The translations under genes and the position numbers were made by a program. This document shows, piece by piece, positions 15,926-60,190 of a DNA stretch of 64,000 bases. Numbering within the stretch: position 1 is the stretch's first letter; each line of letters opens with the position of its first letter. A model generated the notes under the pieces. That model saw only the letters and a list, made by a program, of their open reading frames with translations, was not told the origin of the DNA and made no database searches. This stretch comes from an uncultured Gammaproteobacteria bacterium (lineage in GTDB: Bacteria; Patescibacteriota; Patescibacteriia; UBA9934): NCBI GenBank assembly GCA_964613815.1, contig CAZTKG010000001.1, positions 8,895-72,894 of the forward strand, given 5' to 3'.

Positions 15926-16032
15926 TTCCCATCTCGACCTTGTGGAGAGATCTGATTGTGATAAAACTGCGAGATCTCTCCGTAAGGTCCCCACTTTGCA
16001 GAATGCTTCGTTAGGGGCAGGCGAGATGGGAG
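15926..16032. repeat. RPE-like palindromic element, copy 1 (long form)
   Basis: TTCCCATCTCGACC..GGAGAGATCT..AGATCTCTCC..AAGGTCCCCACTTTGCAGAATGCTTCGTTAGGGG..GAGATGGGAG. It shares its long right arm with copy 6. Confidence 0.8.
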
Positions 16033-16097
16033 TAGTAAAGAGCTGCATTGCTTATTCCATTCTGACTGAATAGATGCTATTGTTAGCAATAGATTCT

Positions 16098-17561
16098 ATG
16101 AAAAAAGCTTCAGCTTTAGCGAAAAATACGTTCTATTTGACGCTTGCGATGATTGGGCAGAAAGTGATTGCCTTTCTTTATTTTGCGCTCATTGCTCGAT
16201 ACATGGGGGCCGGGGATACGGGGGCGTATTTTTTGGCGTTGGCGGTGGTTACGGTGCTGACGGTGCTCGATGATGTGGGGGTGACAAGCGTGCTTATTCG
16301 TGAGGTGGCGAAGAAGACGAATGATGCGAAGGTCTGGTGTCGGACGGTGATGGGGGTGAAGGTGGTTACGGTGCCGCTGATGATTTTGATGGCGTTTTTG
16401 GTCCCATCCGTGTTTGGATATGAAGATGGCGTAGCGAAATTGATTCAACTTGCGCTTATTGTGATGGTGGCGGATTCGTTTACGATTTCTTGGTATGGCG
16501 TTTTGCGAGGGCTCCAGAAATTGAAGTTTGAGGCGCTTGGCGTGTTTGTTGGGCAGATTTTGATTGCGGCTGTTGGTGTTGGATGGCTTTTGACGGGGAC
16601 GGCCACGTTGCCTATTTTGATTCTAGCGCTTGCGGCTGGGAGTGTTTGGAATATGTGTTTTAGTGGGTTTTGGATTGCGCGGCATTTGGGGTTGGGGGCG
16701 TTTGTGCCTGGGTATGCGATGGGTTGGAAGCCTTTGAAGATGGCGTTTGCGTTTTTCTTAGCAGCCGTGTTTGTGAAGGTGTACTCGTATGTTGATAGTT
16801 TGATTTTGTCGATGGAGCTTGGGAATGATGCCGTTGGACGGTATGCGGTGGCGTATAAGTTGACGTATGCGTTTCAGTTTTTTCCGTTAGCGTTTGTAGG
16901 GGCGCTTTATCCGGCGATGAGTTCTTGCGCGCGGGATAAGGAGCGATTGAAGCATGTGTTTTTGCAAGCGCTTTGGTATTTGGCGATTATTGGGTTTCCG
17001 ATTGTGTTTGGGATTTGGGCGATGGCGCCGGAGATTATTGGATTGTTTTATGGAGCTGATTATTCGGCGTCGGTTTTGCCGTTGCAAATATTGATCTTTG
17101 TTCTTCTGTTCTTGTTTTTGGATTTTCCGATTGGATCTTTGCTTAACGCTTGTGATCGGCAGGGGACGAAGACGGCGATCATGGGTGGGACGATGGTGGT
17201 TAATGTGGTGGCGAATTTGATGTTGATTCCGATGTATGGCGTGGAAGGAGCGGCGATTGCAGGACTGATTAGTTTTGCATTCCTTTTCTTTGCTGGATGG
17301 GTGTTTATGCAGTCGGTTGTGCGTGTGACGATGGTTGATCTTTGGCGAAGTGTTGGGATGGTGTTGTTGATTTCGATTTTGATGGCGGTCTGTGTGGTGC
17401 TTGTTAAGGCGTGGGTGCATATGCTTGTCGCGATTGGTGTGGGAGCCGTTTTGTATGCCCTGTTATTGGTTTTATGTGGTGTTGTTCGAAAGGAGCACTT
17501 GGCACTCTTTATGTCGATTGTAAAACCTTCGTATGAAGCGCGTATTTCTTCCGACGTTTGA
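16098..17561 (+). CDS. Wzx-like oligosaccharide/polysaccharide flippase (MOP superfamily)
   Basis: About 14 TM helices in a polysaccharide-biosynthesis-protein layout; start taken at MKKASALAKNTF. Confidence 0.65.
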   Translation: MKKASALAKNTFYLTLAMIGQKVIAFLYFALIARYMGAGDTGAYFLALAVVTVLTVLDDVGVTSVLIREVAKKTNDAKVWCRTVMGVKVVTVPLMILMAFLVPSVFGYEDGVAKLIQLALIVMVADSFTISWYGVLRGLQKLKFEALGVFVGQILIAAVGVGWLLTGTATLPILILALAAGSVWNMCFSGFWIARHLGLGAFVPGYAMGWKPLKMAFAFFLAAVFVKVYSYVDSLILSMELGNDAVGRYAVAYKLTYAFQFFPLAFVGALYPAMSSCARDKERLKHVFLQALWYLAIIGFPIVFGIWAMAPEIIGLFYGADYSASVLPLQILIFVLLFLFLDFPIGSLLNACDRQGTKTAIMGGTMVVNVVANLMLIPMYGVEGAAIAGLISFAFLFFAGWVFMQSVVRVTMVDLWRSVGMVLLISILMAVCVVLVKAWVHMLVAIGVGAVLYALLLVLCGVVRKEHLALFMSIVKPSYEARISSDV

Positions 17562-18525
17562 GGGGCCTGATGGGGCGGGAGGGATTGGACGATACATTAA
17601 GGCGATTGCCGCGGAGTATCCGAGTGTTGATATTTGTGTCTGGGAAGCTGATAAGGGTCGATTTTGGTATTTTAAGGAGATGCTTCGAGCAAGGAAGCTG
17701 TTTGATGGTGTTTGGGTGCATCATGTGTTGCCGCTTGGGACATTTGCGTTGCTTGCACGTGTGAATTTTGTTGTGTTTTTGCATGGGATGGATTTTGATC
17801 TTGCTCGACGAAATTCTTGGAAGCGATGGCTTTTACGGAAGGTTTTGGTGAGGGCGAAGCGTGTTGTGGTGAATTCTTGCGCGCTTCGTGATGAGGTTAT
17901 GTTGTTTTGCGGGGTTGAAGCGATTGTCGTGTTTCCGTGTTTGGATGATTCTTTTGCTGCGGTTCCAGAGGTGGATCGTGGGGACGATTGTAAGCATCCT
18001 GTTGTGTTTTTGACGGTTGCCCGGCTTGTAGAACGGAAAGGGCATGTGAAAGTGCTTGAGGTTATCAAGAGCTTGCCTGATGTTCAGTATTGGATTGTTG
18101 GCGGCGGTGCGTATGCGCATGCGTTGCAGCGTCATGTGGAGAGACTTGGGCTTTCGGAGCGTGTGTTGCTTCTTGGAAAGGTGGATGATGATCAGCTCAA
18201 GGAGTGTTATCGATCAGCTGATGTGTTTGTGATGCCGACGTCTCAGACGGATCATGATCGAGAGGGGTTTGGGATTGTGTATTTGGAAGCAGGAGCATTT
18301 GGATTGCCTGTGATTGCAACTGACCTTGTTGGGGTGAATGAGGCGGTTGAGCATGGGGTTAATGGACTTTTGGTGGGTGAGGGATGTACGCTTGAGAGAG
18401 CGATTGCTCGACTTTTGCATGCGCCAGAGTTGCGTCGGGAGCTTGGGAAGCGAGGACGAGGGCGGGCGTTGCATCGTTTTTCTCGGAATGTTCAAATGGG
18501 GAAGCTTAAGGTGCTTTTTGAATAG
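17533..18525 (+). CDS. family 4 glycosyltransferase
   Basis: EX7E region EGFGIVYLEAGAFGLPVIATD plus GT4 Rossmann C-domain motifs. Confidence 0.8.
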   Translation: MKRVFLPTFEGPDGAGGIGRYIKAIAAEYPSVDICVWEADKGRFWYFKEMLRARKLFDGVWVHHVLPLGTFALLARVNFVVFLHGMDFDLARRNSWKRWLLRKVLVRAKRVVVNSCALRDEVMLFCGVEAIVVFPCLDDSFAAVPEVDRGDDCKHPVVFLTVARLVERKGHVKVLEVIKSLPDVQYWIVGGGAYAHALQRHVERLGLSERVLLLGKVDDDQLKECYRSADVFVMPTSQTDHDREGFGIVYLEAGAFGLPVIATDLVGVNEAVEHGVNGLLVGEGCTLERAIARLLHAPELRRELGKRGRGRALHRFSRNVQMGKLKVLFE

Positions 18526-18526
18526 T

Positions 18527-19225
18527 ATGAAGCTTGTATCTATTATTATTCCTAGTTATCAGCATGCGAAGGCGCTTCGTGTGTGTTTGGGGAGCGTAAC
18601 TCAGCAAAGCTATGATGAGGTTGAAGTGATTGTGGTTGATGATGGGTCAACGGATGAAACGAAGGAGGTGGTGAAGATGTTTGATGGGGTTCGGTATGTG
18701 TATCAGGAGAATGCGGGGCCGCAGGTGGCTCGGAATCGGGGGTTTGATGAGAGTCGGGGGGAATTTGTGATTTTTTGTGATGCGGACGTGGTGATGCAGC
18801 CTGGGATGATTGAGAAGATGGTGAAGGCGCTTGATGGTGGGGATGTGGCGTATGTGTATAGTGGGTTTCGGTTTGGGTGGAAGGTGTTTGGTGCGGTGGA
18901 ATTTGACGAGAAGAAGTTGAAAACACATAATTTTATTCATACAACGAGTTTGATACGTCGGGAGGTGTTTCCGGGGTTTGATGTGAAGGTGAAGCGGCTT
19001 CAGGATTGGGATTTGTGGTTGACGCTGCTTGAGAATGGGCATCGAGGGGTGTGTATTGATGAGGTGTTGTTTGCGGTTCAGGTGGATGGGGAGAGTCGGG
19101 TTGGGTCGTCTTGGTTGCCGCGGTTTATGTATGGAGCGGTTTGGCGGAAGGTGTTTGGGTGGGTGCCGGCACTTCGAACGTATGAGGCTGCTCGGGAGGT
19201 TATTTTTGAGAAGCATGGGTTATGA
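18527..19225 (+). CDS. family 2 glycosyltransferase
   Basis: MKLVSIIIPSYQHAKALRVCLGSVTQQSYDEVEVIVVDDGSTDET...FCDADV; the ORF-track start at 18338 is rejected. Confidence 0.75.
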   Translation: MKLVSIIIPSYQHAKALRVCLGSVTQQSYDEVEVIVVDDGSTDETKEVVKMFDGVRYVYQENAGPQVARNRGFDESRGEFVIFCDADVVMQPGMIEKMVKALDGGDVAYVYSGFRFGWKVFGAVEFDEKKLKTHNFIHTTSLIRREVFPGFDVKVKRLQDWDLWLTLLENGHRGVCIDEVLFAVQVDGESRVGSSWLPRFMYGAVWRKVFGWVPALRTYEAAREVIFEKHGL

Positions 19226-20067
19226 ATAAAGAGCTTTCCGTGATTGTGGTGACGTTTAATGAGGCTGAGAATGTCCTGCGGGCTTGTTTTGGGTCGGTTC
19301 GGGAGAGTGAGGTCGGGTGTGAGTTGATCGTGGTTGATAACGGATCTCGGAAGGCGACAGCTGATATCGTTGAGGCGTATAATGGGCGGTATGTTGATAT
19401 GGGGCGGAATGCGGGATTTGCGGCGGCGGTGAATGCGGGGATGAAGGTTCGTGGAGCTCGAGATGTGCTTTTGTTGAATCCTGATGCGCGGTTTGAGAAA
19501 GGGGTGCTTCGGAAGGTTTATGATCGGTTTAGAGGCGATGAAGATGTTGGGATTGGGAGCTCGGTGATTCGGTATCCGGATGGGCGTTTGCAAGAGAGCA
19601 TTCGGCGGTTTCCGACTGTTTTTGATCAATTGTTGATTTTGATGAAGGTGCCGCATGTGATGCAGTCGAAGACGATTGATCGGTATATGATGCGGGATGT
19701 TGATGCGCTCGGGACGCGTGATGTGGATTCGATTATGGGCGCGTTTATGCTCATTAAGGGTGATTTGATAGATGACATTGGGATGTTTGATGAGCGGTAT
19801 TTTATTTGGTTTGAAGAAGTGGATTACTGCAAAATGACGGTGGATGCGGGATGGAAGGTGCGACATTATGGAGATGTGGAGGTGGAACATCTGAAGGGGC
19901 ATGCGTTTAGTCGGCAAGCGACGTGGCGGAAGCAGCGATGGATGCGGGAGAGTTTGCGGAAGTATGTGCGGAAGCATTTAGGATTTGGGGCTTGGGTGTT
20001 TTTTTGGGGGATGACGCCGGTGTTTATTTTGATGGCTGCGGTGTCGTCGGTGGTTAAGCCGAGGTGA
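19222..20067 (+). CDS. family 2 glycosyltransferase (rhamnosyltransferase-like)
   Basis: LSVIVVTFNEAENVLRACFGSV...LIVVDNGS...LLLNPDARF. Confidence 0.75.
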   Translation: MNKELSVIVVTFNEAENVLRACFGSVRESEVGCELIVVDNGSRKATADIVEAYNGRYVDMGRNAGFAAAVNAGMKVRGARDVLLLNPDARFEKGVLRKVYDRFRGDEDVGIGSSVIRYPDGRLQESIRRFPTVFDQLLILMKVPHVMQSKTIDRYMMRDVDALGTRDVDSIMGAFMLIKGDLIDDIGMFDERYFIWFEEVDYCKMTVDAGWKVRHYGDVEVEHLKGHAFSRQATWRKQRWMRESLRKYVRKHLGFGAWVFFWGMTPVFILMAAVSSVVKPR

Positions 20068-20074
20068 TGTCTTT

Positions 20075-20158
20075 TTCCCATCTCGACCGAACGAAGTGAG
20101 TGGAGAGATCTGATTGTGGCAGAGCTGCGAGATCTCTCCGCGTTGGTCGAGATGGGAA
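20075..20158. repeat. RPE-like palindromic element, copy 2
   Basis: CCCATCTCGACC..GGAGAGATCT-(18 nt)-AGATCTCTCC..GGTCGAGATGGGAA. It fills the entire GT2/ligase intergenic region. Confidence 0.8.
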
Positions 20159-20166
20159 GTGGATAT

Positions 20167-21849
20167 ATGCTAGATCAATTTTTTGGAACATATACGTGGT
20201 GGACGGTTGGAGGCATTGTTGGGGTGTTTTTGTTGGCGCTTTTTGGGAAGATCGCGGGTTTGTCGGCGCTTGTTTTGATGTTGCTTGGAGTTTTGATTGC
20301 GTATGCTGCGTGGAATTCATTGGAAGTTGGGATGTTTGTCGCGTTTGTGGAGATGTTTGTTGGGGGGCATGGGCGATTGCTAGCTATGGAGGTGCTTGGG
20401 TTTTCGATGAGTTTGCGGATGGTGATTTTTGGCGTTGTGATGGGGGTGTTTTTGGTGCGGTTTTTGCAAGGTCGATTTAAGATCAATATTTTGCCTTGGC
20501 GGGACGGGCCTTGGATGCTTTTGATGGCTGCGGTGGTTTTGGGGGTTGTTGTGGGAGGGTTTGATCATGATGGAGGCGCGGTATTTGATGATGCGAATGG
20601 GTTTTTGGTTGTTGGCTACTTACTTCCTGTGATTGCAATTCGGTGGACGGCTGCATGGCGGCATCGGATGTTGCAGGCTTGTATGGGGGCGTATGTTTGG
20701 GTGACGGGTTTGACGCTTGGACTTGGATATTTGTTTACGCATTTACCAGGGAAGGCGCTTGATTTTGTATATAAGTTTGTGCGAGATGGGCGGATTGCGG
20801 AGGTGACGTTGCAGACGGTCGGGCATTTTGAAGGGGGGAGGTTTTATGAAGTTTTGATTGCTATGCTGGGGGATGGAGGGTATTGGTTTCGGGTGTTTTT
20901 GCCGAATCAGTTTACGATTTTGATTGGGATGTTTTTGCTTCTCGGTGCGGTGGTTTGGAGTAAGAAAGGGCAGTTGTCGGGACGTGTGATGCTGGTTGTT
21001 GGTGGTTTGATTGGGAGTGGGGCTGCGGCTCTTTTGCTTGGGGGATCGCGGAGTTTTTTGGTGGGAGTTTTGGCTGGTGGGGTTTGTTTGGTGGTTTTGA
21101 TGGTTCTTTCCCATCTCGACCGACCGCAGGGAGTGGAGAGATCTCTCCGCGTTGGTCGAGATGGGAGGATGGATGGTGTAATGAAGATTTTGATGATTGG
21201 TGTTGGGTCGTGTTTGGTTGCGTTCATGACGGCTTGGATTGTGGTGGAATTGCCGGTTCCTGCACGGCCTGATTTGAGTGATGCGTATTTTTACAGTACT
21301 TCTGCCGATGAGGGGCGGGCGAGTGCGGTGGCAAGTCGGTGGGATTTGCTTGATCCGATGATGGATGAGATTAAGGGCGCGCCGATGTTGGGATCTGGTT
21401 TTGGAGAAGAGATTACGTATCAGAGTAGCGATCCACGTGTGATTGCAGAGACTGGGGGCGGAGAGTGGACGACGTATCGGTTTGAGTGGGGGTATTTGGA
21501 TATTTGGTTGAAGATGGGAGTCTTGGGGGTGTTGGCGTTTGGGTGGTATTTGATGTCGATTTTTGTGGGCGTGCGACGGTTTGGTAGAGATCGAATATGG
21601 CTTGGGGTGGCTTTGATGTCGGCTGTTGTTGCGCTTTTTGGGACGCATATATTTTCGCCGTATTTGAATCACCCGATTGGGATTGGGTTTATGGTGTTTG
21701 TGTTGGTGTTTTTTGATGGTAGCGATGATGTCCGGCGAGGGAGGGTTGTTGATGAGGTTTTGGAAAAAATGGATTACGTTCGTGTTTCGGTTGGAGCCAC
21801 TTTTGGGCCGGCCGGACAAAAAGTGGTTCGGGAAGGTTTGGAAAAATAA
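20167..21849 (+). CDS. O-antigen ligase/polymerase-like (Wzy_C domain) membrane protein carrying an in-frame repeat-element insertion
   Basis: LLLGGSRSFLVGVLAGGV (the SR-containing helix) ... [element-encoded SHLDRPQGVERSLRVGRDGRMDG] ... MLGSGFGEEITY...EWGYLDIWLKMGVLGVL (GxGxG and ligase C-terminal motif). Start at MLDQFF; the 20116 start lies in repeat copy 2. Confidence 0.65.
   Translation: MLDQFFGTYTWWTVGGIVGVFLLALFGKIAGLSALVLMLLGVLIAYAAWNSLEVGMFVAFVEMFVGGHGRLLAMEVLGFSMSLRMVIFGVVMGVFLVRFLQGRFKINILPWRDGPWMLLMAAVVLGVVVGGFDHDGGAVFDDANGFLVVGYLLPVIAIRWTAAWRHRMLQACMGAYVWVTGLTLGLGYLFTHLPGKALDFVYKFVRDGRIAEVTLQTVGHFEGGRFYEVLIAMLGDGGYWFRVFLPNQFTILIGMFLLLGAVVWSKKGQLSGRVMLVVGGLIGSGAAALLLGGSRSFLVGVLAGGVCLVVLMVLSHLDRPQGVERSLRVGRDGRMDGVMKILMIGVGSCLVAFMTAWIVVELPVPARPDLSDAYFYSTSADEGRASAVASRWDLLDPMMDEIKGAPMLGSGFGEEITYQSSDPRVIAETGGGEWTTYRFEWGYLDIWLKMGVLGVLAFGWYLMSIFVGVRRFGRDRIWLGVALMSAVVALFGTHIFSPYLNHPIGIGFMVFVLVFFDGSDDVRRGRVVDEVLEKMDYVRVSVGATFGPAGQKVVREGLEK
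21107..21168. repeat. RPE-like palindromic element, copy 3 (short form, inside the ligase-like CDS)
   Basis: CCCATCTCGACC GACCGCAGGGAGT GGAGAGATCTCTCC GCGTT GGTCGAGATGGG: perfect 12 bp terminal inverted repeats and a central 14 bp palindrome. It is read through without a stop. Confidence 0.8.
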
Positions 21850-24805: not shown

Positions 24806-24832
24806 TCCGGTGATTGTGCCGGAGATTTTTTG
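24806..24832 (+). terminator. intrinsic terminator after the ABC exporter
   Basis: CTCCGG-TGATTGTG-CCGGAG followed by ATTTTTT. Confidence 0.6.
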
Positions 24833-24874
24833 CTTGATACAAAAGTGGTCCGTACGGACCACTTTTGTATCAAG
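24833..24874. repeat. 42 bp perfect palindrome CTTGATACAAAAGTGGTCCGTACGGACCACTTTTGTATCAAG (copy 1); a half-copy lies at 24955..24985
   Basis: Identical to the palindrome at 34854..34897. Both copies lie just 3' of an ABC exporter gene and are followed about 100 bp later by a degenerate right-arm copy. Confidence 0.75.
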
Positions 24875-24995
24875 GAGAGATTTTTGGAATGATGCGCGTT
24901 GTCTTTAGTTTGTGTTTTTTTGGAATGGTTGTTTGTATTGTCTTGTTTTGATTTTGGTCCGTACGGATCATTTATGTATCAAGGTGGATGATTAG

Positions 24996-26134: not shown

Positions 26135-26620
26135 TTAGAGATAAGCTTCTTCGGGGATGTCGCCTTTTGTGATTTTTTTGGCTTTTTCGATGAAGAGGAT
26201 GCCGTCTAGGTGGTCGATTTCGTGTTGGAAGACGATGGAGAGGAGTTTGTCGGCTTTGATGCGGACGGGGTCACCGTTTCGATCTTTGGCTTTGATTTTG
26301 CAGGATTTGTGGCGTTCGACAATGCCCCAGACGCCTGGGATGGAGAGGCAGCCCTCTTGGAAGTCGATCTTCGTGTTTGAGGTGGAGATGATTTTGGGGT
26401 TGATGAAGGCTTGTGGGCCTTTTTTGGTTTCGGCGATGATGATGCGGACGTTTTCTCCGATTTGTGGAGCGGCGATACCGATGCCATTTTCTGCCGCCAT
26501 GGTTTCGATCATGTTGTCGATGAGGGTTTGGATTTTTTCTGACTGAATATCGGCATCAGGTACGGGGGCTGATGGGGTGTTAAGGGTTTTGTTTGGGTGG
26601 GTGAGGACGTTGAGTTTCAT
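26135..26620 (-). CDS. def: peptide deformylase
   Basis: GIGIAAPQIG, EGCLSIPG, HEIDHLDG: the three PDF motifs. Confidence 0.9.
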   Translation of the reverse strand: MKLNVLTHPNKTLNTPSAPVPDADIQSEKIQTLIDNMIETMAAENGIGIAAPQIGENVRIIIAETKKGPQAFINPKIISTSNTKIDFQEGCLSIPGVWGIVERHKSCKIKAKDRNGDPVRIKADKLLSIVFQHEIDHLDGILFIEKAKKITKGDIPEEAYL

Positions 26621-28379
26621 AGGTTGTTAGGGTGGTTTCGATGATGCAGGCGTCGGGGAGGGTTTTTAAGAGAGGGGTTATGGAAGGGGTTTGTAATGGA
26701 TGCGTTCTGATGGTGATTTTGTTGTCTTGTTGTTCTGTTTCTGCTTGAGGGGGGAGGGCGCCAATGAAGTCTGGAGGGACTTGATGGGTTTTTGGGGTGA
26801 TGGTGATTTCATCAAATGCAGGTGGGAGGTGGTAGTCGTTTGCGAGGTCGGTTTGGGATTTGATGAAGGATTCTGCGTTTAGGGTTGGGGTGACGATTTC
26901 TGGGATCCAGGTTTGGACGATGTGCGTTGCGTTTTGTTGTTTTGCGATGTAGTGGGAGCGGTAGAGTGTTCGTGCCATTCTTTGTGTTGCGTCTTGGTCA
27001 GCCATGGAAAGTTCTTGGTCGATGCTGATGTGGGCGATGAGGTTGAACGTTTGAGGAAAGAATGGTTTCCAGATTTGGTTGAAGAAGTATTCTGTGGCGA
27101 TGTTGATGTCGGCGTCTGGGTTGCCTGGATGCTGTTTGTCGATAATTTTGATGGAAGCTTTTGGAAACGCTTTTTGGATGATGGATTTGAGGCGGGCGTT
27201 TCCGATGCCTTTTTGTTTCCAGTCCATGGATCTGCAGTTTGGGCAGGAGGAGGCTTTTTGTGGAAGTTTGCAGAGGGTGCAGAATGGAGCGTTGTCTTGG
27301 TTTTTGAGGATCGATTGGCAGGTTTTGCAGCGGAGAATTTGTTTACAGGTGCCGCATTGGAAGCGTCTTGAAGTACCTTTTCGATTGAATGAAAGTAGCA
27401 CGGATTTAGGGGTTTGTAAAGCGTCAGTGATGGCATCGATGAGGCTAGAGGAGAGGAGTGGGAAGGGGGATTGCTGTTCTTCTGCTTTGAGGTCGATGAT
27501 GGTCAGGGTGGGGTGATTATCGAAAACGGATGCTTGGTAGGGAAGGGGGTCTGTTTGGAGGAGGGTGGCGTTATGCTGTTTGGTGAGAAGTTTTGCGGCG
27601 GTGCGGGCGTCGAATCTTGGGTTTCGTTTGGTGTTTTTGTGGGCTTCGTCGGAGGCGCATTCGATAATGACAAATGAAAGGTTGTGAGCTGGGAGAAGAG
27701 CGCCAACTTTTGTGGCGATGAGTGTTGTGCAAGTGCCAGTGCGCCAGGCTTTTTGGATGGTTTGACGGTGGGGTTTTGACGTTTTGCCGTGGATAGCGAG
27801 AGCGTTTGGGAATGAGAGGGATTTGGCGAGATTGTCGACATCTCTTCCTGTGGGAAGGAGGATGAGGGTTTGGTTTGGGGCGTTTTTGGCGAGGATGGAA
27901 AAAAGCGTCCAGGCGGTTTCTGGAGAAGATTGGATGGTGAGGGATTTGGTGGTTTTGATGGTTGGGAGGAGGGATTTGATGCGGTCGGCTGCGTGTTTTG
28001 AGATGGAGGTCTGGGGGTTTGTTGGATTTTCCCATCTCGACCTTGTGGAGAGATCTCTCGACTGCGCTCGAGATGGGGAAGAAGGGAATATGAAAAAGAG
28101 GAGACTTGGGACGGATTGGCCGATGGAAGTAGCAATAGATTCAAGGCGGGTGATGTCGGCTGAGGTTATTAGATTTTTGATCGCGATGCCGGAGATCGGT
28201 TTGGCGTTTGGAACTTCTGCGGTTTGGTTGATTTTGGCGACGATACCGGTTGTCTTGAAACCTCGGATGGTGATGTAGACGAGGTCGCCGATATTAGTGT
28301 TTACTCCTGCTGGAATTTGGTAATCAAAAACACCGAACCTCCTTGGCATTCGGCGGATTGGGTAGACCTGGGCAATCAT
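26580..28379 (-). CDS. priA: primosomal protein N' (PriA helicase) carrying an in-frame repeat-element insertion near residues 95-115
   Basis: N-terminal MIAQVYPIRRMPRRFGVFDYQIP...GDLVYITIRG. Cys4-Cys4 zinc fingers CGTCKQILRCKTCQS...CTLCK...CPNCRS. Helicase motifs are present. The element encodes FPSSPSRAQSRDLSTRSRWE. Confidence 0.85.
   Translation of the reverse strand: MIAQVYPIRRMPRRFGVFDYQIPAGVNTNIGDLVYITIRGFKTTGIVAKINQTAEVPNAKPISGIAIKNLITSADITRLESIATSIGQSVPSLLFFIFPSSPSRAQSRDLSTRSRWENPTNPQTSISKHAADRIKSLLPTIKTTKSLTIQSSPETAWTLFSILAKNAPNQTLILLPTGRDVDNLAKSLSFPNALAIHGKTSKPHRQTIQKAWRTGTCTTLIATKVGALLPAHNLSFVIIECASDEAHKNTKRNPRFDARTAAKLLTKQHNATLLQTDPLPYQASVFDNHPTLTIIDLKAEEQQSPFPLLSSSLIDAITDALQTPKSVLLSFNRKGTSRRFQCGTCKQILRCKTCQSILKNQDNAPFCTLCKLPQKASSCPNCRSMDWKQKGIGNARLKSIIQKAFPKASIKIIDKQHPGNPDADINIATEYFFNQIWKPFFPQTFNLIAHISIDQELSMADQDATQRMARTLYRSHYIAKQQNATHIVQTWIPEIVTPTLNAESFIKSQTDLANDYHLPPAFDEITITPKTHQVPPDFIGALPPQAETEQQDNKITIRTHPLQTPSITPLLKTLPDACIIETTLTTYETQRPHPPKQNP
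28029..28079. repeat. RPE-like palindromic element, copy 4 (short or truncated form, inside the priA CDS)
   Basis: TTCCCATCTCGACC TTGT GGAGAGATCTCTC GACTGCGC TCGAGATGGGG. Confidence 0.75.
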
Positions 28380-34835: not shown

Positions 34836-34853
34836 TCGTTTGATGTTTCTTCT

Positions 34854-34897
34854 GCTTGATACAAAAGTGGTCCGTACGGACCACTTTTGTATCAAGC
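34854..34897. repeat. 42 bp perfect palindrome (copy 2, CTTGATACAAAAGTGGTCCGTACGGACCACTTTTGTATCAAG); a half-copy lies at 34980..35008
   Basis: Identical to 24833..24874. Confidence 0.75.
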
Positions 34898-35057
34898 AGG
34901 CATGGGGGTGTTTTTTTTGGAAATGATTGATGACTGCCAGTTTTGTCATTGTCTTTTCGATTCTGCCTGTATTTTTTTTGGTCCGTACGGACCATTTTTG
35001 TTACAAGGAGACGGGAGCATCATTTGGTTTAAATGGGGTGTGTTAAAATGGTGGCCT

Positions 35058-36897: not shown

Positions 36898-36972
36898 TTC
36901 CCATCTCGACCTTGTGGAGAGATCTCTGCGATGATCAAGAAGGAAGGATCTCTCCGCAAGGTTGAGATGGGA
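36898..36972. repeat. RPE-like palindromic element, copy 5
   Basis: TTCCCATCTCGACC TTGT GGAGAGATCTCT-(20 nt)-ATCTCTCC GCAAGG TTGAGATGGGAA. Confidence 0.8.
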
Positions 36973-37052: not shown

Positions 37053-39689
37053 TTATTTTCGTTGTCGGATTTCTAGCATGCCTTTTGTGGCGTCGATGGT
37101 GACGTTTGCGCCTTCTTTGATTTCTCCTGTGATGATTTTCATGGCTAGTGGGTCGAGGATTTCGGTTTGGAGGATGCGTTTGAGGGGGCGGGCGCCGAAT
37201 TCTTGGGAGTAGCCGAGGTCGCCGAGGGTTTTTTGGGCTCTGGCGGTGACTTTGAGGTTCATGGCGCGTTGTTCTTTGAGTCGGGCGGCGATTTGTTCGA
37301 TTTGGAGTTTGACGATTTGGGTGATCTCCTCCTTCTTAAGAGCGTCGAAGAAGATGATTTCATCGATTCGGTTGAGGAATTCGGGTTTGAATTGTTCCTT
37401 TAGCATGTTTAGCACTCTGTCCTTGGTAGTGCTAGGTGCTTGATCTGCGGTGCCGTCCTCGAATCCGATGTCGCCGGTTTTGTGGCCGTTTAGGATGACG
37501 TTTGATCCGACGTTGGAGGTCATGATGATGATGGTGTTTTTGAAGTTGATTTTGCGACCTTTGGAGTCGGTGACATGGCCGTCGTCAAGAATCTGCAACA
37601 AAATGTTGAAGATGTCTGGATGGGCTTTTTCGATTTCGTCGAAGAGGATGACGGAGTAGGGCTTTCGGCGGATGGTCTCGGTAAGTTGGCCGGCTTCGTC
37701 GTAGCCAACATATCCAGGAGGGGAGCCGATCATTTTGCTGATGGCGTGTTTTTCCATGAACTCGGACATGTCGACGCGGACGAGGGCGTCTTCGTCGTTG
37801 AACATGAACTCTGCCAGAGCTTTGGCGAGCTCGGTTTTTCCGACACCGGTAGGGCCGAGGAACATGAAGGAGCCGATGGGTTTGTTCTCCTCGTTAATGC
37901 CGGCTCGGGAGCGTCTGAGGGCGTTTGAGACGGCGGAGAGGGCTCTTGATTGGCCGATGACGCGGCCGGCGAGGTTTGCCTCCATTTTGCTTAAGCGCTC
38001 CATTTCGCTCTGGAGCATTTTGACGACAGGGATGTGGGTCCAGCGGCTGACGACGGTTGCGATGTCTTCTTCTGAGATGTGCTCTTTGAGGAGGCCGCGT
38101 TCTGCTTGGAATTTCTTGAGTTCGTCTTGGAGTCTTTCGAGGCTTTCTCGTAGGGCGGGAATGTCGTTGTAGCGGATTTGGGCGACTTTTTGGAGGTCAC
38201 CTCGACGTTCGGCAATTTCTGCTTCGTTTGAGAGTTTATCGGTTTCGTCTTTTAGGGATCGGATTTGTTCGATGAGAGATTTTTCGTTTTTCCAGCGGAG
38301 TTCGAGTTCGTTTGACTCTTCCTTGATGTCGGCGATTTGTTTTTCGATTTCTTTTTTCCGAGATTTGGATTTTTTACTATCCTCCTTGAGGAGTGATTGG
38401 CGTTCGATTTCCAGGCGCATGATGTCGCGTTTGTAGCGGTCGAGTTCTTCTGGCATGGAATCGATTTGCATGCGGAGGCCAGCGCTTGCTTCGTCCATGA
38501 GGTCAATGGCTTTGTCTGGGAGTTGGCGAGTGGTGATGTAGCGGTTTGAAAGTTCGGCGGCAGAAATGATTGCTTCGTCAGTGATGCGGATGCCGTGGTG
38601 GATTTCGTATTTTTCTTTGATTCCGCGGAGGATCGCGATGGTGTCTTTAACGGTTGGTTCTTTGATCATGACGGTTTGGAATCGGCGTTCAAAGGCGGCG
38701 TCTTTTTCGATGTATTTTTGGTATTCCTTGAGCGTCGTTGCGCCGACAACGCGAAGTTCACCGCGGGCGAGGGCGGGTTTGAGCATGTTTGATGCGTCCA
38801 TGGGGGACTCGTCACCTTTTCCTGCGCCGACGAGGGAATGGAGTTCATCGATGAAGAGGATGATTTGGCCGTTTGAGGCTTCGATTTCGCGGATGACAGC
38901 CTTGAGTCGTTCTTCGAATTCTCCTCGAAATTTGGTTCCGGCGACAAGGGCGCCAAGGTCTAGTGAAACGATTTCTTTGTCTTTGAGCATTTCTGGGACG
39001 TCGCCAGTAGCAATGCGTTGTGCGAGCCCTTCTGCGACGGCTGTTTTTCCGACGCCGGCTTCGCCGATAAGGACAGGGTTATTCTTGGTTCGGCGGACGA
39101 GGACCTGCATGGTTCGGCGGATTTCTTCGTCACGGCCGATGATCGGGTCGATTTTTCCTTGGCGCGCTGCCTCGGTGACGTTGACAGAGTATTTTTCTAG
39201 GGCTTGGAATTTGGCTTCTGGATTGGCAGAATCGACTTTTTGGTTTCCGCGAACGTCTTTGAGCGCTTCGAGGATCGCTTCTTCGTTGACGCGATGTTGG
39301 TTGAGAAGTTTGGAAATTGGGCCGTCGTGAAGGAGGCCGAGAAGCATGTGCTCGGTGGAGATGAATTCATCGCCAAAGTCTTTAGCGCGGTTGCCGGATT
39401 CTTGGAGGACTTTTGCGAGGTTTGGAGAAAGGAGGACCTGGCCAATACCGCCGGTTGCGAATCCTTGTGTTTTTGGAAGGCGTTCGAGAATGCGGTTGAT
39501 GGACATGCGTAGGTTTTCTACGTCGATGTTCATTTTGAGAAGAGTGGAAATGACAATGCCGTCTTCTTGGTTGAGAAGGGCAGAGATGAGGTGAATGGGT
39601 TCAACGCCTTGCTGACCGTTTTCGTTGGCGAGCATTTGGGCGAATTGGATGGCTTGTTGTGATTTTGAGGTGAAATTGTTGGGGATCAT
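37053..39689 (-). CDS. clpB: ATP-dependent chaperone ClpB
   Basis: Two AAA+ modules (GEAGVGKT...; GPTGVGKT...), Clp N-domain and a long coiled-coil M-domain. Start at [12 protein letters not shown]; the 12 extra N-terminal residues of the ORF are translation of the 120 bp repeat. Confidence 0.9.
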
Positions 39690-39698
39690 AATGGGAGG

Positions 39699-39830
39699 GT
39701 TGAATCGCTTCGCTCGTTGAATCACTCGCCTGCGGCATCGTTCGTTTAAAGCGTTGATTCCGGAATCAACGAGCGCAGCGATTCAACGAGTTTCGGCGAT
39801 TAGTCGAACGATTCAACGATTTAAACGTTA
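39699..39830. repeat. about 120 bp palindromic intergenic repeat, copy A (TCGTTGAATCACTCGCC...CGTTGATTCCGGAATCAACG...GATTCAACGATTTAAACGTT)
   Basis: Three copies: A 39699..39830, B 59109..59255, C 60629..60747. Contains the 20 bp perfect palindrome CGTTGATTCCGGAATCAACG. Each copy abuts the 5' end of a - strand gene. Confidence 0.8.
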
Positions 39831-53781: not shown

Positions 53782-53782
53782 G

Positions 53783-54835: not shown

Positions 54836-54897
54836 ACGGGGTCATGAGATGTTATCTTAACAAAAAAAATTCTGTATGCAAGCAGAATTTTGTTGTT

Positions 54898-55622: not shown

Positions 55623-55623
55623 A

Positions 55624-58509
55624 TTACGTTTGAGCGAATTCGCAGATGTCTTTGAAGTCACAGTAGTTGCATCCGAAGCCTGGTGTTGGCTTGAAGTCAC
55701 TTGATTTGATGGCTTCTACGGATGATTTGATTTCTTCAATGAGACGTTCTTTGAGTTTGTCTTTTGGTTCAAAGGAAACGGTGCTGTTGTTTTCGAGATA
55801 GTGATATTCGAGTTCTGTGACGTGAAGTGGAGGGTCAAAGCATTTTTCGGCTGCGATAGCGTAGAGAATCAACTGTTTTTTGTCGTCCCAATTCAGTTTA
55901 CCATCTTTTTTTGGATTACCGGTTTTGTAGTCGACGATTTTGTAGGCGTTGTTAATTTTGTCTATTCTGTCGATGCGTCCCTTGATGGTGATGTCGCCGA
56001 TCTTGATCGTGAAAGGTTTTTCGATGAAGGCGACGGTTGGCGGGGTTGCTGTGATCTGGGTGTGGTATTCAATGAGCGATTCCCTTCCTTTTTTGCGATA
56101 CTCATCTCGAATAGCGTCTGAGGGGTACCACTCATTAATCCAGTTTTGATCATACAGAGCGAGGAGATTTTTGAGAGATGGGATGTCTGACTGGGGAGCG
56201 CTTTCGAATAGCGATGTTTGTGTATCCCCTGCCCCGGATTCGAAAAAGTGTTGCAAGGTGTTGTGCATGGTTTTTCCGAAACTCATTTGGTGTTTGCCGA
56301 AGATGGGAATGCGGAGGATATGAGCGAATTTGTATTGGAGTGGGCATTTGGCGAAGGCGGCGAGTTGGGTGAAGCTGACGCGTTTGAGTTCATGCCCTTT
56401 TTGGCTAGACGGGAGTGGAGTTTCGATGGTCGTTTGGGTGGTGATGTCTTTTTGAGATTCGCCTTCGTCTGCTTGGATGTTGAGTTCTTGTAAGAATCTT
56501 GATGGTTTTCGTGTGCGTTTGCCGCCGTAGTCTTTTGCAGCGAGGAGATAGAGGCCTTCTTTGGCGCGAGTGATGGCGACGTAAAAAAGGCGTCGTTCTT
56601 CTTCGACGTGGTCGTGGTCTATGTTTGATGTGATGAGTTCTTGCGGGAGCGGGATCGCGTCTGGACGCGCACGAGATGGGAAACGTTGTTCGATGAGGTT
56701 GATGATGAATACGTAAGGAAATTCGAGGCCTTTTGATCCATGGATGGTCATGATGTTGATGGCGTCGTTATGATCGGTTTCTGATGTTGAGAGGGCGCCT
56801 GTCTCCCCTGCTTGGCGTTCATGTTCGAATTCTTCGAGGAAATGTGTGAGGGTTTTGTCCCCGGTGTTTGATTCGAAGGATTTTAGGCGGGTGAGAAATT
56901 GTTGCAAATAATCGTACTGTTCGGCCTGTTGGATTTCCGGGAGGGTGCCTACGTGTCCGAGGATACCGGTTTGTTTGAGGACTTCTAGATACAGTTCGGT
57001 GATTGGGGCTCGGCGGGATTTTGTATGGAGCTGGTCGATTGTTGTTGTGATGGATTGGAGGCGTTTTGCGGTACCCGTGTCTTCTGGTGTTTTAGCGGTC
57101 ATTGCTTTGTAGAGTGAGGAGCCGTCTTGTTTGGCGGTGAGCGCGATGTTTGCGATGTCTTTGTGCGCAAGGCCGAGTTCTGGGTGCGCAAGGATGCGGT
57201 AGATGGAGATGCTGTCATGGTGGAAGGCGATGGCGCGGAAGTAGGCGAGAATATCGAGGATGATTGGCTGGGTGTAGAGGCCGGCTCTTGCTTGGAATGT
57301 GTATGGAGCACCGATTTGGTCTAGTTTGTTGACGAGTTCTGTGGCGTGGGCATTTGCTCGAACGAGGATAGCGAAGTCTCCCCAGTTTGTTTCTGAAGCT
57401 TCTTTTTTGGTGAGGATTTCTTGAATGGTGAAATCGATTTCGTCTTCGAGGGTTGGGAATATTAGATGTCGAACAAAGCCCTCCCCTTCTTTGTGGGGTT
57501 TGAGTTCTTTGTTGAGGCCTTCGCGGGCTTCGAGACGGTTTGGATTGTTGTTTTGGATGAGGCTATAGGCGGCGTTTAGGATGCTGGCTTTTGATCTGTA
57601 GTTTGTGGTGAGGACAACGGTGGTGGTTTGGGGGAAGTCGGATTTAAAAGAGAGGATATTTGAGAGGGATGCGCCGCGGAATTTGTAAATGGATTGGTCG
57701 TCATCTCCGACGATGGTGATGTTTTGTTCTTTGTTTATCAAGAGCTTTACGAGTTCGTATTGTGAGCTGTTGGTGTCTTGGAATTCGTCGACGAGGATGT
57801 GTTTGAATTGGGTTTGATAGTGCTCGCGGATGTTTGGGCGTGTTTTGAGGAGTTCGAGGGTGTAAGCGATCAGGTCGGCGAAATCAAGCGCGTTGTTTTC
57901 GAGCATGATTTGTTGATAGGTGTGGTAGGCGCTTGCGAGTTCTTGATATTTGGCCGGTTCCGAGAGTGCCTTGTCTGCTTCGGCAATGTCGTCATTTAGC
58001 CGGAGAGACTCGGCAAAGGTGTGGTAGTCGTTTGGGGTGACGCCTTCGTCTTTTGCTCTTGAGATGTGATTGATGATGGCTTTGATGAATCGGGTTGGAT
58101 TGGATTTTGGTTTGTAGTAGTCCAGGGTGAATTTATCGAGATTGCGGTTGATGGTGAGGAGGGTTTGGACTTCGTCGAGGAGCGTAAAGTCGTTTGCGAG
58201 GCCGATTTCTACGGCGTGGGCACGGAGGACGCGTTCGCAAAAGGCATGAAATGTGGAGATCCATGTTTCTAGGTAGCCGATTGGGAGGAGTTCGTCGATA
58301 CGTTCTTCCATTTCTGTGGCGGCTTTTTCGGTGAATGTGAGTGCAAGGATTTCTTCTGGTTTTGCGCCTTGTTCGATGAGCCAGGCGACGCGTTTGGTGA
58401 TGACGGTGGTCTTCCCTGTTCCAGCACCGGCGATAATCATGAGTGGACCGGTTTTGTGTGTGACGGCGGTGTGTTGTTCTGGGTTTAGGGCGGAGAGGTC
58501 GATTGGCAT
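55624..58509 (-). CDS. UvrD/PcrA-family SF1 helicase fused to a C-terminal PD-(D/E)xK (Cas4/AddB-like) nuclease domain with a Cys cluster
   Basis: Walker A AGAGTGKT, helicase motifs across about 650 aa. C-terminal DYKTG (nuclease motif III) with Cys in FAKCPLQYKF and GCNYCDFKDIC (4-Cys Fe-S-like). Confidence 0.85.
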   Translation of the reverse strand: MPIDLSALNPEQHTAVTHKTGPLMIIAGAGTGKTTVITKRVAWLIEQGAKPEEILALTFTEKAATEMEERIDELLPIGYLETWISTFHAFCERVLRAHAVEIGLANDFTLLDEVQTLLTINRNLDKFTLDYYKPKSNPTRFIKAIINHISRAKDEGVTPNDYHTFAESLRLNDDIAEADKALSEPAKYQELASAYHTYQQIMLENNALDFADLIAYTLELLKTRPNIREHYQTQFKHILVDEFQDTNSSQYELVKLLINKEQNITIVGDDDQSIYKFRGASLSNILSFKSDFPQTTTVVLTTNYRSKASILNAAYSLIQNNNPNRLEAREGLNKELKPHKEGEGFVRHLIFPTLEDEIDFTIQEILTKKEASETNWGDFAILVRANAHATELVNKLDQIGAPYTFQARAGLYTQPIILDILAYFRAIAFHHDSISIYRILAHPELGLAHKDIANIALTAKQDGSSLYKAMTAKTPEDTGTAKRLQSITTTIDQLHTKSRRAPITELYLEVLKQTGILGHVGTLPEIQQAEQYDYLQQFLTRLKSFESNTGDKTLTHFLEEFEHERQAGETGALSTSETDHNDAINIMTIHGSKGLEFPYVFIINLIEQRFPSRARPDAIPLPQELITSNIDHDHVEEERRLFYVAITRAKEGLYLLAAKDYGGKRTRKPSRFLQELNIQADEGESQKDITTQTTIETPLPSSQKGHELKRVSFTQLAAFAKCPLQYKFAHILRIPIFGKHQMSFGKTMHNTLQHFFESGAGDTQTSLFESAPQSDIPSLKNLLALYDQNWINEWYPSDAIRDEYRKKGRESLIEYHTQITATPPTVAFIEKPFTIKIGDITIKGRIDRIDKINNAYKIVDYKTGNPKKDGKLNWDDKKQLILYAIAAEKCFDPPLHVTELEYHYLENNSTVSFEPKDKLKERLIEEIKSSVEAIKSSDFKPTPGFGCNYCDFKDICEFAQT

Positions 58510-58512
58510 AGG

Positions 58513-59091
58513 TTAATGTTGTTTGCCCCAGGCGACGATGAGGGCATGGTATTCGTTGAAGAGGGCTGCGTCGTTATCAAGATTTGAAGTGAAGAGATGC
58601 TTGTATTCGTCGTAGGTTGACAATGTTAGCCTTTTTGATGCGCAGAGGCGTTTGGTGTAGGTGTCGATGACGAATTCTGGGCGATTTCCGGCGTAGAGAA
58701 GAATAGAATCGGCCGTTTCTGGGCCGATCCCCCATTGTGCAAGGACATGGTTTCTTGATGCGGATTCTGCGAAGTGTTTGGCCGATTGCCAGTTGTTCGT
58801 GATTTCTGCGGCGATGAGACGGAGTTTTTTGGCTTTTTGGTTGTAGTATCCGCTTGGCTTGATGGCGGCTTTGAGATCGTCTTCTGGGAGGGTTAGGAGT
58901 GCTTGTGGTGATAACGCCTTGCGTGTTTTTAGGTTTGCGATGGCTTTTTCGACATTTTTCCAAGTGGTGTTTTGGGTGAGGATGGTGCCGATGATGATTT
59001 CGAAGGCGGGATCCTGTTTTGATGTGGTTGGCCACCAGTGCTGCGGGCCGAATTCATCAAGTAGCTCTTGGTAGGTCTGGTTGATGTCCAT
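58513..59091 (-). CDS. HhH-GPD superfamily base-excision DNA glycosylase (EndoIII/MagIII-like)
   Basis: WWPTTSKQDPAFEIIIGTILTQNTTWKNVEKAIANL is the HhH-GPD N-terminal helix pattern. The ORF extension to 59121 is translation of repeat copy B. Confidence 0.65.
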   Translation of the reverse strand: MDINQTYQELLDEFGPQHWWPTTSKQDPAFEIIIGTILTQNTTWKNVEKAIANLKTRKALSPQALLTLPEDDLKAAIKPSGYYNQKAKKLRLIAAEITNNWQSAKHFAESASRNHVLAQWGIGPETADSILLYAGNRPEFVIDTYTKRLCASKRLTLSTYDEYKHLFTSNLDNDAALFNEYHALIVAWGKQH

Positions 59092-59108
59092 GTTGTGGGG
59101 GCGTTTAA

Positions 59109-59255
59109 GTCGTTGAATCACTCCCGGCGGGGCCGGGTTGTTCGTTTAAGGCGTTGATTTCGGAATGAACGAGCGGAGTCACGTCGTTCGCGAACGACGT
59201 GGCGGAGCGATTAAACGAGTTAGGGCGTTAGCCCACGATTCAACGACTTAAACGT
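59109..59255. repeat. about 120 bp palindromic intergenic repeat, copy B (with a 24 nt hairpin insertion)
   Basis: Aligns end-to-end with copies A and C. Confidence 0.8.
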
Positions 59256-59257
59256 TT

Positions 59258-59665
59258 TCAGCTCGCGGGCTGCATGGAGACGTTTCCTTCTTCGTCGATG
59301 TCGGCGATGAGGGTGATGATGTTGAGGTTTGGGTAGCGGACAGCGAGGGTTTGTTTGGCAGACATTAGCTCGCTTTGATGGTGTTTGTATTCTTCTTCTT
59401 TTGATGGAAATGCCGCTCTTCCGCCGTAGCCTCCGCAGTCTGTGTGGTTGATGAGAATGAGGTCTTGGATGTCGTGTAATTGTTTTGAGAGGGCGATTTG
59501 GTTTTCGACGGAGCTGTCTGCTGGGTCGTTGACGCCTTTTGTGGCACCAGCAATGGAGATGATATCGGCGTCGCCACAGATGTCGTGGGATGTGAGGTAG
59601 TCGTGGATCGCGTGTTCGAGTCGGAAGTCCATGCATCGGACGAGAGCTGCTTTGCATGAGGCCAT
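59258..59665 (-). CDS. short beta-carbonic-anhydrase-like protein
   Basis: CMDFR ... HTDCGG zinc-ligand pattern (CxDxR...HxxCG). Confidence 0.5.
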   Translation of the reverse strand: MASCKAALVRCMDFRLEHAIHDYLTSHDICGDADIISIAGATKGVNDPADSSVENQIALSKQLHDIQDLILINHTDCGGYGGRAAFPSKEEEYKHHQSELMSAKQTLAVRYPNLNIITLIADIDEEGNVSMQPAS

Positions 59666-59744
59666 ATGATTTTGTGAGTGTTTATTGGAGGTAGTTTAGC
59701 ATCTTTAATAGAAAAACACCCACGTTTTGACGTGGATGGTGTGA

Positions 59745-59996
59745 CTAGTTGATGGTGAAGATCTCGTTGATCTTCGGGATCAGGACTCGTCTGTCTGTGA
59801 TCCCGCTGTCGCGGAGCTCGGTGAGGCCCGCGATCGTGTCGACAGCATCGGTGCGAGCACGTCGGATGGCGTCGTTGAAGATAGCTGGATAGTTCGACGG
59901 CGAGTCAGCCCACAGGGCGGATTCGAGCATTGCGACGATGCGTCGTCTGGGAGAAAATGGTGCCGGAGTTGTTCTGGTTTTTGCGAGCGCGGCCAT
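59745..59996 (-). CDS. hypothetical small protein (83 aa), GC-rich, with its own promoter/operator-like palindrome and terminator
   Basis: - strand TTGACA-17-TATCAT with the -10 inside the loop of an 11 bp inverted repeat (AAGAACGACAT...ATGTCGTTCTT). AGAGGA 5 nt before the ATG. A hairpin + T-run lies downstream at about 59712..59745. Confidence 0.45.
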   Translation of the reverse strand: MAALAKTRTTPAPFSPRRRIVAMLESALWADSPSNYPAIFNDAIRRARTDAVDTIAGLTELRDSGITDRRVLIPKINEIFTIN

Positions 59997-60083
59997 GAGA
60001 TCCTCTTGATGAAAACGAAAAGAACGACATGCGGCGGATGATAGCGCAAAATGTCGTTCTTGTCAATGCTGGGTTGTCATCAT

Positions 60084-60190
60084 TCCCATCTCGAGCATCG
60101 TTGAGAGATCTGATGGGGGCAGGGCTGCAAGATCTCTCCACAAGGTCCCCACTTTGCAGAATGCTTCGTTAGGGGTAGGCGAGATGGGAG
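60084..60190. repeat. RPE-like palindromic element, copy 6 (long form)
   Basis: TTCCCATCTCGAGC..GAGAGATCT-(18 nt)-AGATCTCTCC..AAGGTCCCCACTTTGCAGAATGCTTCGTTAGGGG..GAGATGGGAG. Confidence 0.8.

Follow-up and report, generated by a model that had tools for sequence, protein, structure and literature searches.

Palindromic elements of a candidate phyla radiation genome as probable tags-outward dimers of a CCC-tagged repeat unit with an Ssn-type nuclease as partner

The 64-kb stretch of contig CAZTKG010000001.1 analysed here (hereafter the window), from an uncultured, small-genome bacterium of the candidate phyla radiation (CPR), contains six copies of a main family of palindromic repeats, together with two dimers of a sister family that stand on either side of a small gene, ssn, for a predicted GIY-YIG nuclease (Table 1). 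Loci given L-numbers and proteins given P-numbers lie outside or beside this stretch. The six main-family copies had been proposed in a sequence-only reading of the same DNA, and at those positions they are borne out far beyond chance. With at most one mismatch allowed, the string CCCATCTCGACC has 10 occurrences in the window where 0.87 would be expected, a count reached by none of 100 shuffled sequences, and all 10 occurrences are located inside the six copies. The string GGAGAGATCT occurs 16 times against 5.9 expected, and 12 of these 16 matches are inside copies. An nhmmer profile of the repeat unit recovered 10 complete units (E values of 1.7e-9 to 1.6e-7) and two units split by an insert, with no other credible match in the window beyond the 12 units of the six dimers, and a repeat search of the window recovered both the main and the sister family. 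The six copies are not the full set: the sequence-only reading overlooked the GIY-YIG gene and the two sister dimers that flank it, as well as a seventh main-family dimer about 3.9 kb past the right end of the window. This last element (L165, 593-640) is a short A/B heterodimer like copy 4 and is found between a Colicin_V-family gene and a TatD gene.

The main-family copies exhibit a modular layout, made up of an outer pair (CCCATCTCGACC / GGTCGAGATGGG), an inner pair (GGAGAGATCT / AGATCTCTCC) that corresponds to the common inner palindrome described before, and an optional apex of 18-20 nt. This apex, also described before as a central insert of the longer forms, measures 18 nt in copies 1, 2 and 6 and about 20 nt in copy 5, and is absent from copies 3 and 4. 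The copies had further been said to share identical 12-bp termini. This is true of the left terminus in five of the six copies, copy 6 reading CCCATCTCGAGC. Only copies 2 and 3 have an exact right terminus (GGTCGAGATGGG); copies 4 and 5 have one mismatch in it, and in copies 1 and 6 it is interrupted by a common 32-nt insert (GGTC[...]CGAGATGGG). What had been taken for a conserved 45-nt right arm of copies 1 and 6 is this insert splitting the right terminus. These two copies are 87% identical over 91 nt, with apex and insert in common, and are located 44 kb apart.

Pairwise identity among the main-family copies is 76-92% (8-24% difference), and the contigs of this strain exhibit no presence/absence difference; the suggestion that the element is actively proliferating was thus not upheld. 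All of the other contigs belong to the same strain, and for this reason the presence or absence of individual copies is not readable from them. They do reveal that the repeats are not an assembly artefact, because contigs assembled independently from several samples, including a metagenome scaffold of 579 kb, hold the same sequence at 99.97-100% identity. Searches for a previous record of the elements yielded little. A BLAST search with copy 2 against plasmid and phage collections gave no match, a full-text literature search with the repeat strings returned primer and shRNA matches only, and nothing relevant was found in the literature on palindromic elements in combination with CPR or with Anaerococcus.

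A scan for tags with an AT-starting stem on their 3' side resolves each copy into an inverted pair of a directional unit of about 29-38 nt, one on each strand with the tags pointing outward. The main-family unit (TTCCCATCTCGACCTTGTGGAGAGATCTC; the family is also designated by ATCTCGAC) consists of a TCCC tag, the stem ATCTCGA(C/G)C, a loop, the return stem (G/T)(G/C)GAGAGAT, which reads GGAGAGAT or TCGAGAGAT, and a CTC tail. The loops are TTGT, AACGC, GCGCAGT or a stretch of 13 nt; most are 4-7 nt long, those of 13 nt are found in copies 2 and 3, and the loop reaches 36 nt in copies 1 and 6 when the insert is included. The stems comprise 5+2 bp, or 6-7 bp with a bulge. In the sister family the layout is common to both families, and the stems (ATCCTGAGG...GGAAGGAT) differ from those of the main family in a compensating way. 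Across the 12 main-family and four sister units, the tag is CCC in 14 of 16 and GCC in the other two, every stem starts with AT, and all eight elements (six main, two sister) are tags-outward dimers. A C directly 3' of the palindrome is equally constant: all 12 main-family units end in ...GAGAT|C, the units of the first sister dimer end in ...AGGAT|C, and the same C can be read in the raw sequence of the second. With one unit on each strand, the pair folds as a single long hairpin.

Two of the six copies lie in frame within coding sequences and the other four are intergenic, as the sequence-only reading had stated. The two coding insertions, copies 3 and 4, are the shortest forms, and they alone are open in all six frames. 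At the segment of the O-antigen-ligase-like protein encoded by copy 3, all 13 aligned homologues show a 15-residue gap, while copy 4 occupies a variable linker that follows the 3'-DNA-binding domain of PriA. Copy 2 is counted as intergenic because the true start of the ligase-like gene downstream of it is Met17, at 20164. Most homologues of PriA and of the O-antigen-ligase-like protein bear the annotation Candidatus Uhrbacteria or Patescibacteria. In this lineage the PriA-like proteins (window 26580-28379, minus strand; homologues P0002-P0013) are short, at about 575-650 aa, and Pfam detects in them a 3'-DNA-binding domain and a Helicase_C segment only, the DEAD/ResIII N-terminal helicase lobe not being detected.

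The gene between the two sister dimers is the only nuclease or mobile-element gene seen in the window. Its product is a homologue of the Ssn nucleases, with a nuclease role predicted from the sequence. Among these is SsnA, a 94-aa single-domain GIY-YIG protein whose gene is flanked by the NTS repeat (CGTCATTCCCGCGMAVGCGGGAATCYRG) and related motifs termed SRMs (Chenal 2025, Nat Commun, PMC11893778). The window protein retains the invariant residues Tyr10 and Tyr21 (the GIY-YIG tyrosines), Arg31, His35, Glu68 and Asn87, as well as W90, D92 and L93 of the C-terminal NPxWxDL motif. At the position following the conserved G-x-T, His or Tyr is found here where GTC-tagged systems have Asn, Ser or Arg, a residue that may co-vary with the tag. 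It is 51% identical to the protein of metagenome locus L104, whose gene has canonical Neisseria NTS on both sides. Assignment to the family was made through Pfam, the invariant residues and the L104 protein, and the comparison with Neisseria meningitidis SsnA and cd10448 is by description. Among 1946 scored candidates, 1932 are homologues of the window protein at E<1e-8; they are distributed over many phyla, many of them on contigs of about 1 kb, and the best 120 measure 91-127 aa. No specific NCBIfam model matches the window nuclease, and a search of PDB sequences found only a distant UPF0213 protein, 1zg2 (E=5e-4). Two proteins on long contigs, P0211 and P0232, were considered as products of a second ssn gene of the same genome and rejected, as these contigs come from other samples.

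Table 1. Repeat elements of the window, the ssn homologue and the reading frame that hosts copy 3
Feature	Position	Strand	Description	Site
First sister dimer	6337..6454		TCCC tag	Ends 22 nt upstream of the ssn start codon
ssn homologue	6476..6775	+	99-aa single-domain GIY-YIG nuclease (predicted); Pfam GIY-YIG E=2.4e-13	
Second sister dimer	6792..6908		GCC tags; orientation as in the first	Begins 17 nt downstream of the ssn stop
Copy 1	15926..16032		107 nt; plus-strand unit TCCCATCTCGACC-TTGT-GGAGAGATCTG, 18-nt apex, minus-strand unit with 32-nt insert	Intergenic, between rpsI (15493-15888) and a polysaccharide flippase gene
Copy 2	20075..20158		84 nt; plus-strand unit with 13-nt loop, 18-nt apex, minus-strand unit with AACGC loop	Intergenic; occupies the gap from the GT2 gene stop (20067) to the true start of the ligase-like gene (20164)
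O-antigen-ligase-like open reading frame	20116-21849		577 aa	Hosts copy 3
Copy 3	21107..21168		62 nt; no apex	In frame; residues 331-351 (LSHLDRPQGVERSLRVGRDGR) of the ligase-like open reading frame
Copy 4	28029..28079		51 nt, 17 codons; no apex; heterodimer of an A-type unit (plus strand) and a B-type unit (minus strand)	In frame, minus strand; PriA residues 101-117 (SPSRAQSRDLSTRSRWE)
Copy 4, B-type unit		-	ATCTCGAGC-GCAG-TCGAGAGAT	
Copy 5	36898..36972		75 nt; apex of about 20 nt; degenerate minus-strand unit	Intergenic, downstream of clpB (37053-39725, minus strand)
Copy 6	60084..60190		107 nt; composite layout as copy 1 (18-nt apex and 32-nt insert)	15 nt downstream of the atpC stop (60205-60618, minus strand)

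The association of such units with ssn genes is found well beyond the window. At 80 metagenome loci that carry ssn homologues, the downstream flank was long enough to score in 76 and the upstream flank in 75. Hairpin units with an AT-starting, perfect 6-nt stem are present in 46 of these downstream flanks and in 41 of the upstream ones, compared with 18% of shuffled sequences. Units tagged GTC are oriented with respect to the gene: upstream, 33 are forward (tag first) and 12 reverse, and downstream, 29 are reverse and 13 forward. Tag-first units upstream and reversed units downstream place the tags outward around ssn, in the manner of insertion-sequence ends. Very often at these loci the stop codon is directly followed by a unit ending in ...AATGAC (for example GATTGCTTCGCTCCGCTCGCAATGACA and CTGGATTCCCGCCTTCGCGGGAATGACG). 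GTC was counted 172 times as the tag at the 80 loci, and CCC is convincing at a single one, L121. At locus L103, ssn is flanked by TGTCATCTCGAGCGCAGTCGAGAGATCTC, which is the main-family unit of the window with GT in place of CC in its tag, and at the Anaerococcus loci L038 and L060, 50%-identical ssn homologues lie between main-family units.

A likeness between the unit and the end of the gene can also be observed. Read in frame, the left arm gives ...WRDL, and the main-family unit encodes ...(K)WRDL(WD*), mirroring the invariant NPxWxDL end of the Ssn proteins (L048, 4081-4123; L103, about 1545-1600; window 6734-6775); in L048 the reading is PSRPKWRDLWD*, which may be compared with NPxWRDLWD at the Ssn C-terminus. 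At L103 there is physical overlap between the WRDL codons of ssn and the unit downstream. The likeness may hint that the stem family of the unit arose from the 3' end of ssn, which is unproven, or it may be due to chance. Descent of the left arm from that end was tried as an explanation and set aside as unproven: tblastn gave E=5.5, and other SRM families adjoin the stop codon with unrelated stems.

Species-representative genomes were scanned with the pattern CCCATCTCGACCN{4,13}GGAGAGATCT. The matches listed include dozens of loci in at least eight species of Anaerococcus (Firmicutes, about 30% G+C), as well as Candidatus Uhrbacteria, Candidatus Doudnabacteria and Pedobacter alluvionis; a few high-G+C matches were set aside as coding-sequence coincidences. 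A near-identical unit is present in CPR bacteria, in Firmicutes and in a Bacteroidetes genome. The apices of the Anaerococcus dimers are AT-rich and reach about 95 nt. These dimers are densely clustered: at loci L001-L076, 8 kb may contain as many as 13 unit termini, and tandem clusters are spaced about 300-400 nt apart. No published description of their abundance was found in the literature search. The two unit types differ in their strand distribution in Anaerococcus, A-type units being found on the G-rich strand 47 times versus 16 (p=1e-4) and B-type units in the reverse proportion (27 versus 58, p=1e-3), a bias that is confounded with transcription direction in Firmicutes. In the window itself, the uniform orientation of the copies was considered as a sign of strand-specific insertion and discarded as weak, since it involves three subfamily pairs only.

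The reading favoured here, with a probability of roughly 0.8, is that the elements are tags-outward dimers of a directional unit resembling the repetitive extragenic palindromic (REP) sequences, belonging to the class that comprises CGTC-tagged REPs, SRMs and NTS, and that Ssn is their partner. Placement in this class follows from the common layout, the association with the gene and the conservation of the C that is critical for binding. In N. meningitidis SsnA, binding depends above all on this C adjoining the palindrome, and cleavage above all on the three nucleotides that precede it; the enzyme binds its motif only as single-stranded DNA and on one strand only, and cuts a few nucleotides upstream (PMC11893778). 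What is new here is a CCC tag, replacing GTC, at the three positions on which cleavage by the Neisseria enzyme depends. The cognate enzymes of CCC-tagged units probably have an altered cleavage specificity, given the positions at which the change falls; alternatively, these units may be bound without being cut. It is plausible that the window Ssn also acts on the main family, since the unusual tag is common to both families.

A mechanism can be proposed by homology to the N. meningitidis enzyme. Ssn, an endonuclease of about 95 aa, would be the partner protein of the units; when DNA becomes single-stranded during replication, repair or uptake, it would bind a unit on the tag-first strand, with cleavage following a few nucleotides to the 5' side of the tag. 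The repeats behave as non-autonomous passengers of the ssn cassette, copied as whole dimers. Copying of whole composite dimers is shown by copies 1 and 6, with their common apex and insert 44 kb apart. Copies persist where they are tolerated, in short intergenic gaps and, as stop-free short forms in frame, in the loops and linkers of proteins.

Several observations weigh against this reading. The window ssn is flanked by the sister family and not by the six-copy main family, and no ssn gene with main-family flanks was found in this genome. Single units fold weakly as single-stranded DNA, at -2 to -4 kcal/mol with non-significant z scores, which makes recognition as a unit hairpin less certain here; SRM/NTS units are described as forming hairpins of 20-50 nt, NTS itself folds at -8.9 kcal/mol (z -4.6), and the GTC-tagged unit of L103 is as weak as the window units. 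The window tag TCCC differs from the CGTC, TGTC and CCTC of the reported CGTC-tagged REPs, sharing the final C alone with the first two and two positions with the third. The published SRM motif, HGTCWYN(0-2)YYVSBRHN(0-5)WNVSBRGN(0-2)RNCYNB, has no match in the window on either strand, and none when its GTC is replaced with CCC. Finally, the enzymology is that of the Neisseria enzyme, the enzymes of CCC-tagged units being known here from sequence.

Among the alternatives, the one that survives best, while remaining improbable, is that the elements are hairpins that serve the host at the ends of genes, by terminating transcription, stabilising mRNA or acting as attenuators, and that their link with Ssn is incidental. 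Four of the six copies lie just after stop codons or beside T-runs, and folded as RNA the dimers are very stable (-26 to -79 kcal/mol, with z scores of -3.6 to -9.5 in seven of eight); moreover, many REPs have been argued to be transcribed and to act as RNA elements (Di Nocera et al., PMC3733652). Termination would, however, do harm in the essential or conserved coding sequences that contain copies 3 and 4, and copies occur in both orientations relative to transcription. Rfam gives no match at gathering thresholds over the whole window, nor even at E<=10 over 15.8-21.3 kb. The identity of the unit across phyla and its association with ssn point instead to a selfish or domesticated system linked to the nuclease, in which the copies may have a secondary role as terminators.

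It is very unlikely that the elements are REPINs, that is, doublets of classical GTAG-type REPs copied by RAYT, a single-copy Y1 (HUH) transposase. The doublet of imperfect palindromes and the many singleton units in Anaerococcus have a REPIN-like character, and one unit loop (L165, 593) reads GTAG. Nevertheless, the 5' tag is TCCC and not GTAG, the stem has the initial AT of the CGTC class, no transposase, Y1 included, was found among the scanned genes in or next to the window, and the gene that is flanked, in the window, in Anaerococcus and at the 80 metagenome loci, encodes a GIY-YIG nuclease. An origin as classical miniature inverted-repeat transposable elements, the internally deleted, cut-and-paste derivatives of insertion sequences with a DDE transposase, would account for the long terminal inverted repeats, the many copies and the variable interior (0-20 nt here, about 95 nt in Anaerococcus), yet is hardly credible when no direct repeat or target-site duplication is seen at the copy flanks, whose TT...A(A/G) just extends the inverted repeat, when none of 76 loci has a transposase gene between the arms, and when the arms match a directional unit that also stands singly beside ssn genes.

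With the Ssn-partnered dimers as the preferred reading, two further proposals may be considered. One, which is tentative and somewhat doubtful, is that the CCC-tagged units and the ssn genes that they flank, in this CPR genome, in Anaerococcus and at rare loci such as L121, constitute a distinct specificity class of Ssn, in which the three cleavage-governing tag bases switched from GTC to CCC and which moved between very distant phyla. A bolder reading, drawn from the strand bias of the Anaerococcus A-type and B-type units relative to GC skew and from the copying of whole dimers, would mean that Ssn or a replication-coupled process mobilises the dimers through a single-stranded DNA intermediate, as a GIY-YIG counterpart of IS200/IS605 and REPIN-RAYT systems.

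No site-specific endonucleases other than the Ssn nucleases are known to cut single-stranded DNA exclusively, and each pair of enzyme and motif is a potential tool. A natural pair with a different cleavage-governing tag, missed by the published motif, points to an underestimate of the family's diversity, above all in CPR and Firmicutes; Patescibacteria/CPR, Firmicutes and Anaerococcus are unmentioned in the main text of PMC11893778. The reading offered here would also provide a concrete partner enzyme for palindromes that insert in frame, like the Rickettsia palindromic elements (RPEs), in a minimal genome, one of them inside priA, an essential replication-restart gene.

The window has other features of composition and repeat content. 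Its composition is extremely and uniformly asymmetric between the strands (G 32.4%, C 16.7%, T 31.3%, A 19.6%), with a GC skew of +0.32 and an AT skew of -0.23. The GC skew is positive in every 4-kb bin, measuring +0.41 across genes on the plus strand and +0.28 across those on the minus strand, and because it is positive for both gene orientations it follows the strand and not the direction of transcription. The skew visibly shapes the amino-acid composition of the window proteins. A similar disparity of G and C (29.8% C versus 15.0% G), without a disparity of A and T, is reported for the CPR Microgenomates Ch65 and its relatives (PMC7143001).

Two further sets of repeats have no relation to the Ssn-type units. 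The first is a perfect palindrome of about 40-48 nt, TTGATACAAAAGTGGTCCGTACGGACCACTTTTGTATCAAG, found at 24831-24878 and 34851-34898 with 98% identity, each time just downstream of a gene with an ABC-transporter ATPase domain (PF00005; 23493-24791 and 33063-34835) and each time with a weaker, degenerate copy about 110 nt further on (24955-24983 and 34979-35011); these could be an operator or terminator pair. The third repeat family, of about 130 nt and with 90-95% identity among its copies (39699-39829, 59100-59256 and 60626-60747), is built of CGTTGAATC / GATTCAACG and TTTAAACG motifs around a CGTTGATTCCGGAATCAACG palindrome. One of its copies overlaps the clpB start and another lies between atpC and atpD.

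Among known systems, the one invoked in the sequence-only reading was that of the RPEs. RPE-1 repeats, described by Ogata and colleagues in 2000, reportedly sit in frame in protein-coding genes that they do not destroy; they are said to be about 100-150 nt long and specific to Rickettsia, with no nuclease partner described. Compared by description only, they resemble the window copies as in-frame palindromic insertions. The label RPE-like is thus apt for the in-frame behaviour and, to a degree, for the class, and fails in taking for a single palindrome what is really a dimer of a directional unit. The link is at the level of class and not of sequence, through Rickettsia conorii RPE-4 and RPE-6, which together with Neisseria dRS3 have been classed as CGTC-tagged REPs (PMC3733652).

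The REPIN-RAYT systems (Bertels and Rainey 2011; Nunvar 2010) have in common with the window elements inverted REP doublets that form a long hairpin, dispersed non-autonomous intergenic copies, and a small nuclease gene in single copy that has its own repeats as flanks. Their partner is a Y1 HUH transposase and their tag is GTAG, whereas the partner in the window is a GIY-YIG nuclease and the GTAG tag is absent. They are also described as vertically inherited and lineage-specific, in contrast to the window unit, which is near-identical across phyla.

The CGTC-tagged REPs are closer. They have an 8-9 bp stem starting with A, T, a loop of 4-5 nt and an unpaired 3-nt tail, are mostly arranged as tags-outward (HH) dimers, include in-frame intragenic copies, many of them in replication and repair genes, and are said apparently to lack a dedicated transposase (Di Nocera 2013, PMC3733652). 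The window elements exhibit the same succession of tag, AT-starting stem, loop and 3-nt tail, the same HH dimers, often heterodimers, and in-frame copies, here in priA. The differences, apart from the tag, are a CTC tail in place of CCA, a stem of 5+2 bp or of 6-7 bp with a bulge in place of 8-9 bp, and some loops of 13 nt in place of 4-5 nt.

The SRM/NTS system shares still more with the window. Both have a directional, palindromic unit with a short 5' tag, an AT-starting stem and a C after the palindrome; in both, units stand on each flank of a GIY-YIG gene for a protein of about 95 aa with the tags outward, many extra copies are present in the genome, and several phyla are represented. Among ssn homologues, 71% are flanked by SRMs on at least one side and 42% on both, and the NTS-ssnA-NTS arrangement has been likened to an insertion sequence (PMC11893778). 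The SRM/NTS tag is HGTC where that of the window is TCCC, and the stem of the window unit is interrupted and weak, with loops of up to 13 nt. The system in the window is thus taken as a variant within a known class and not as a categorically new kind of system.

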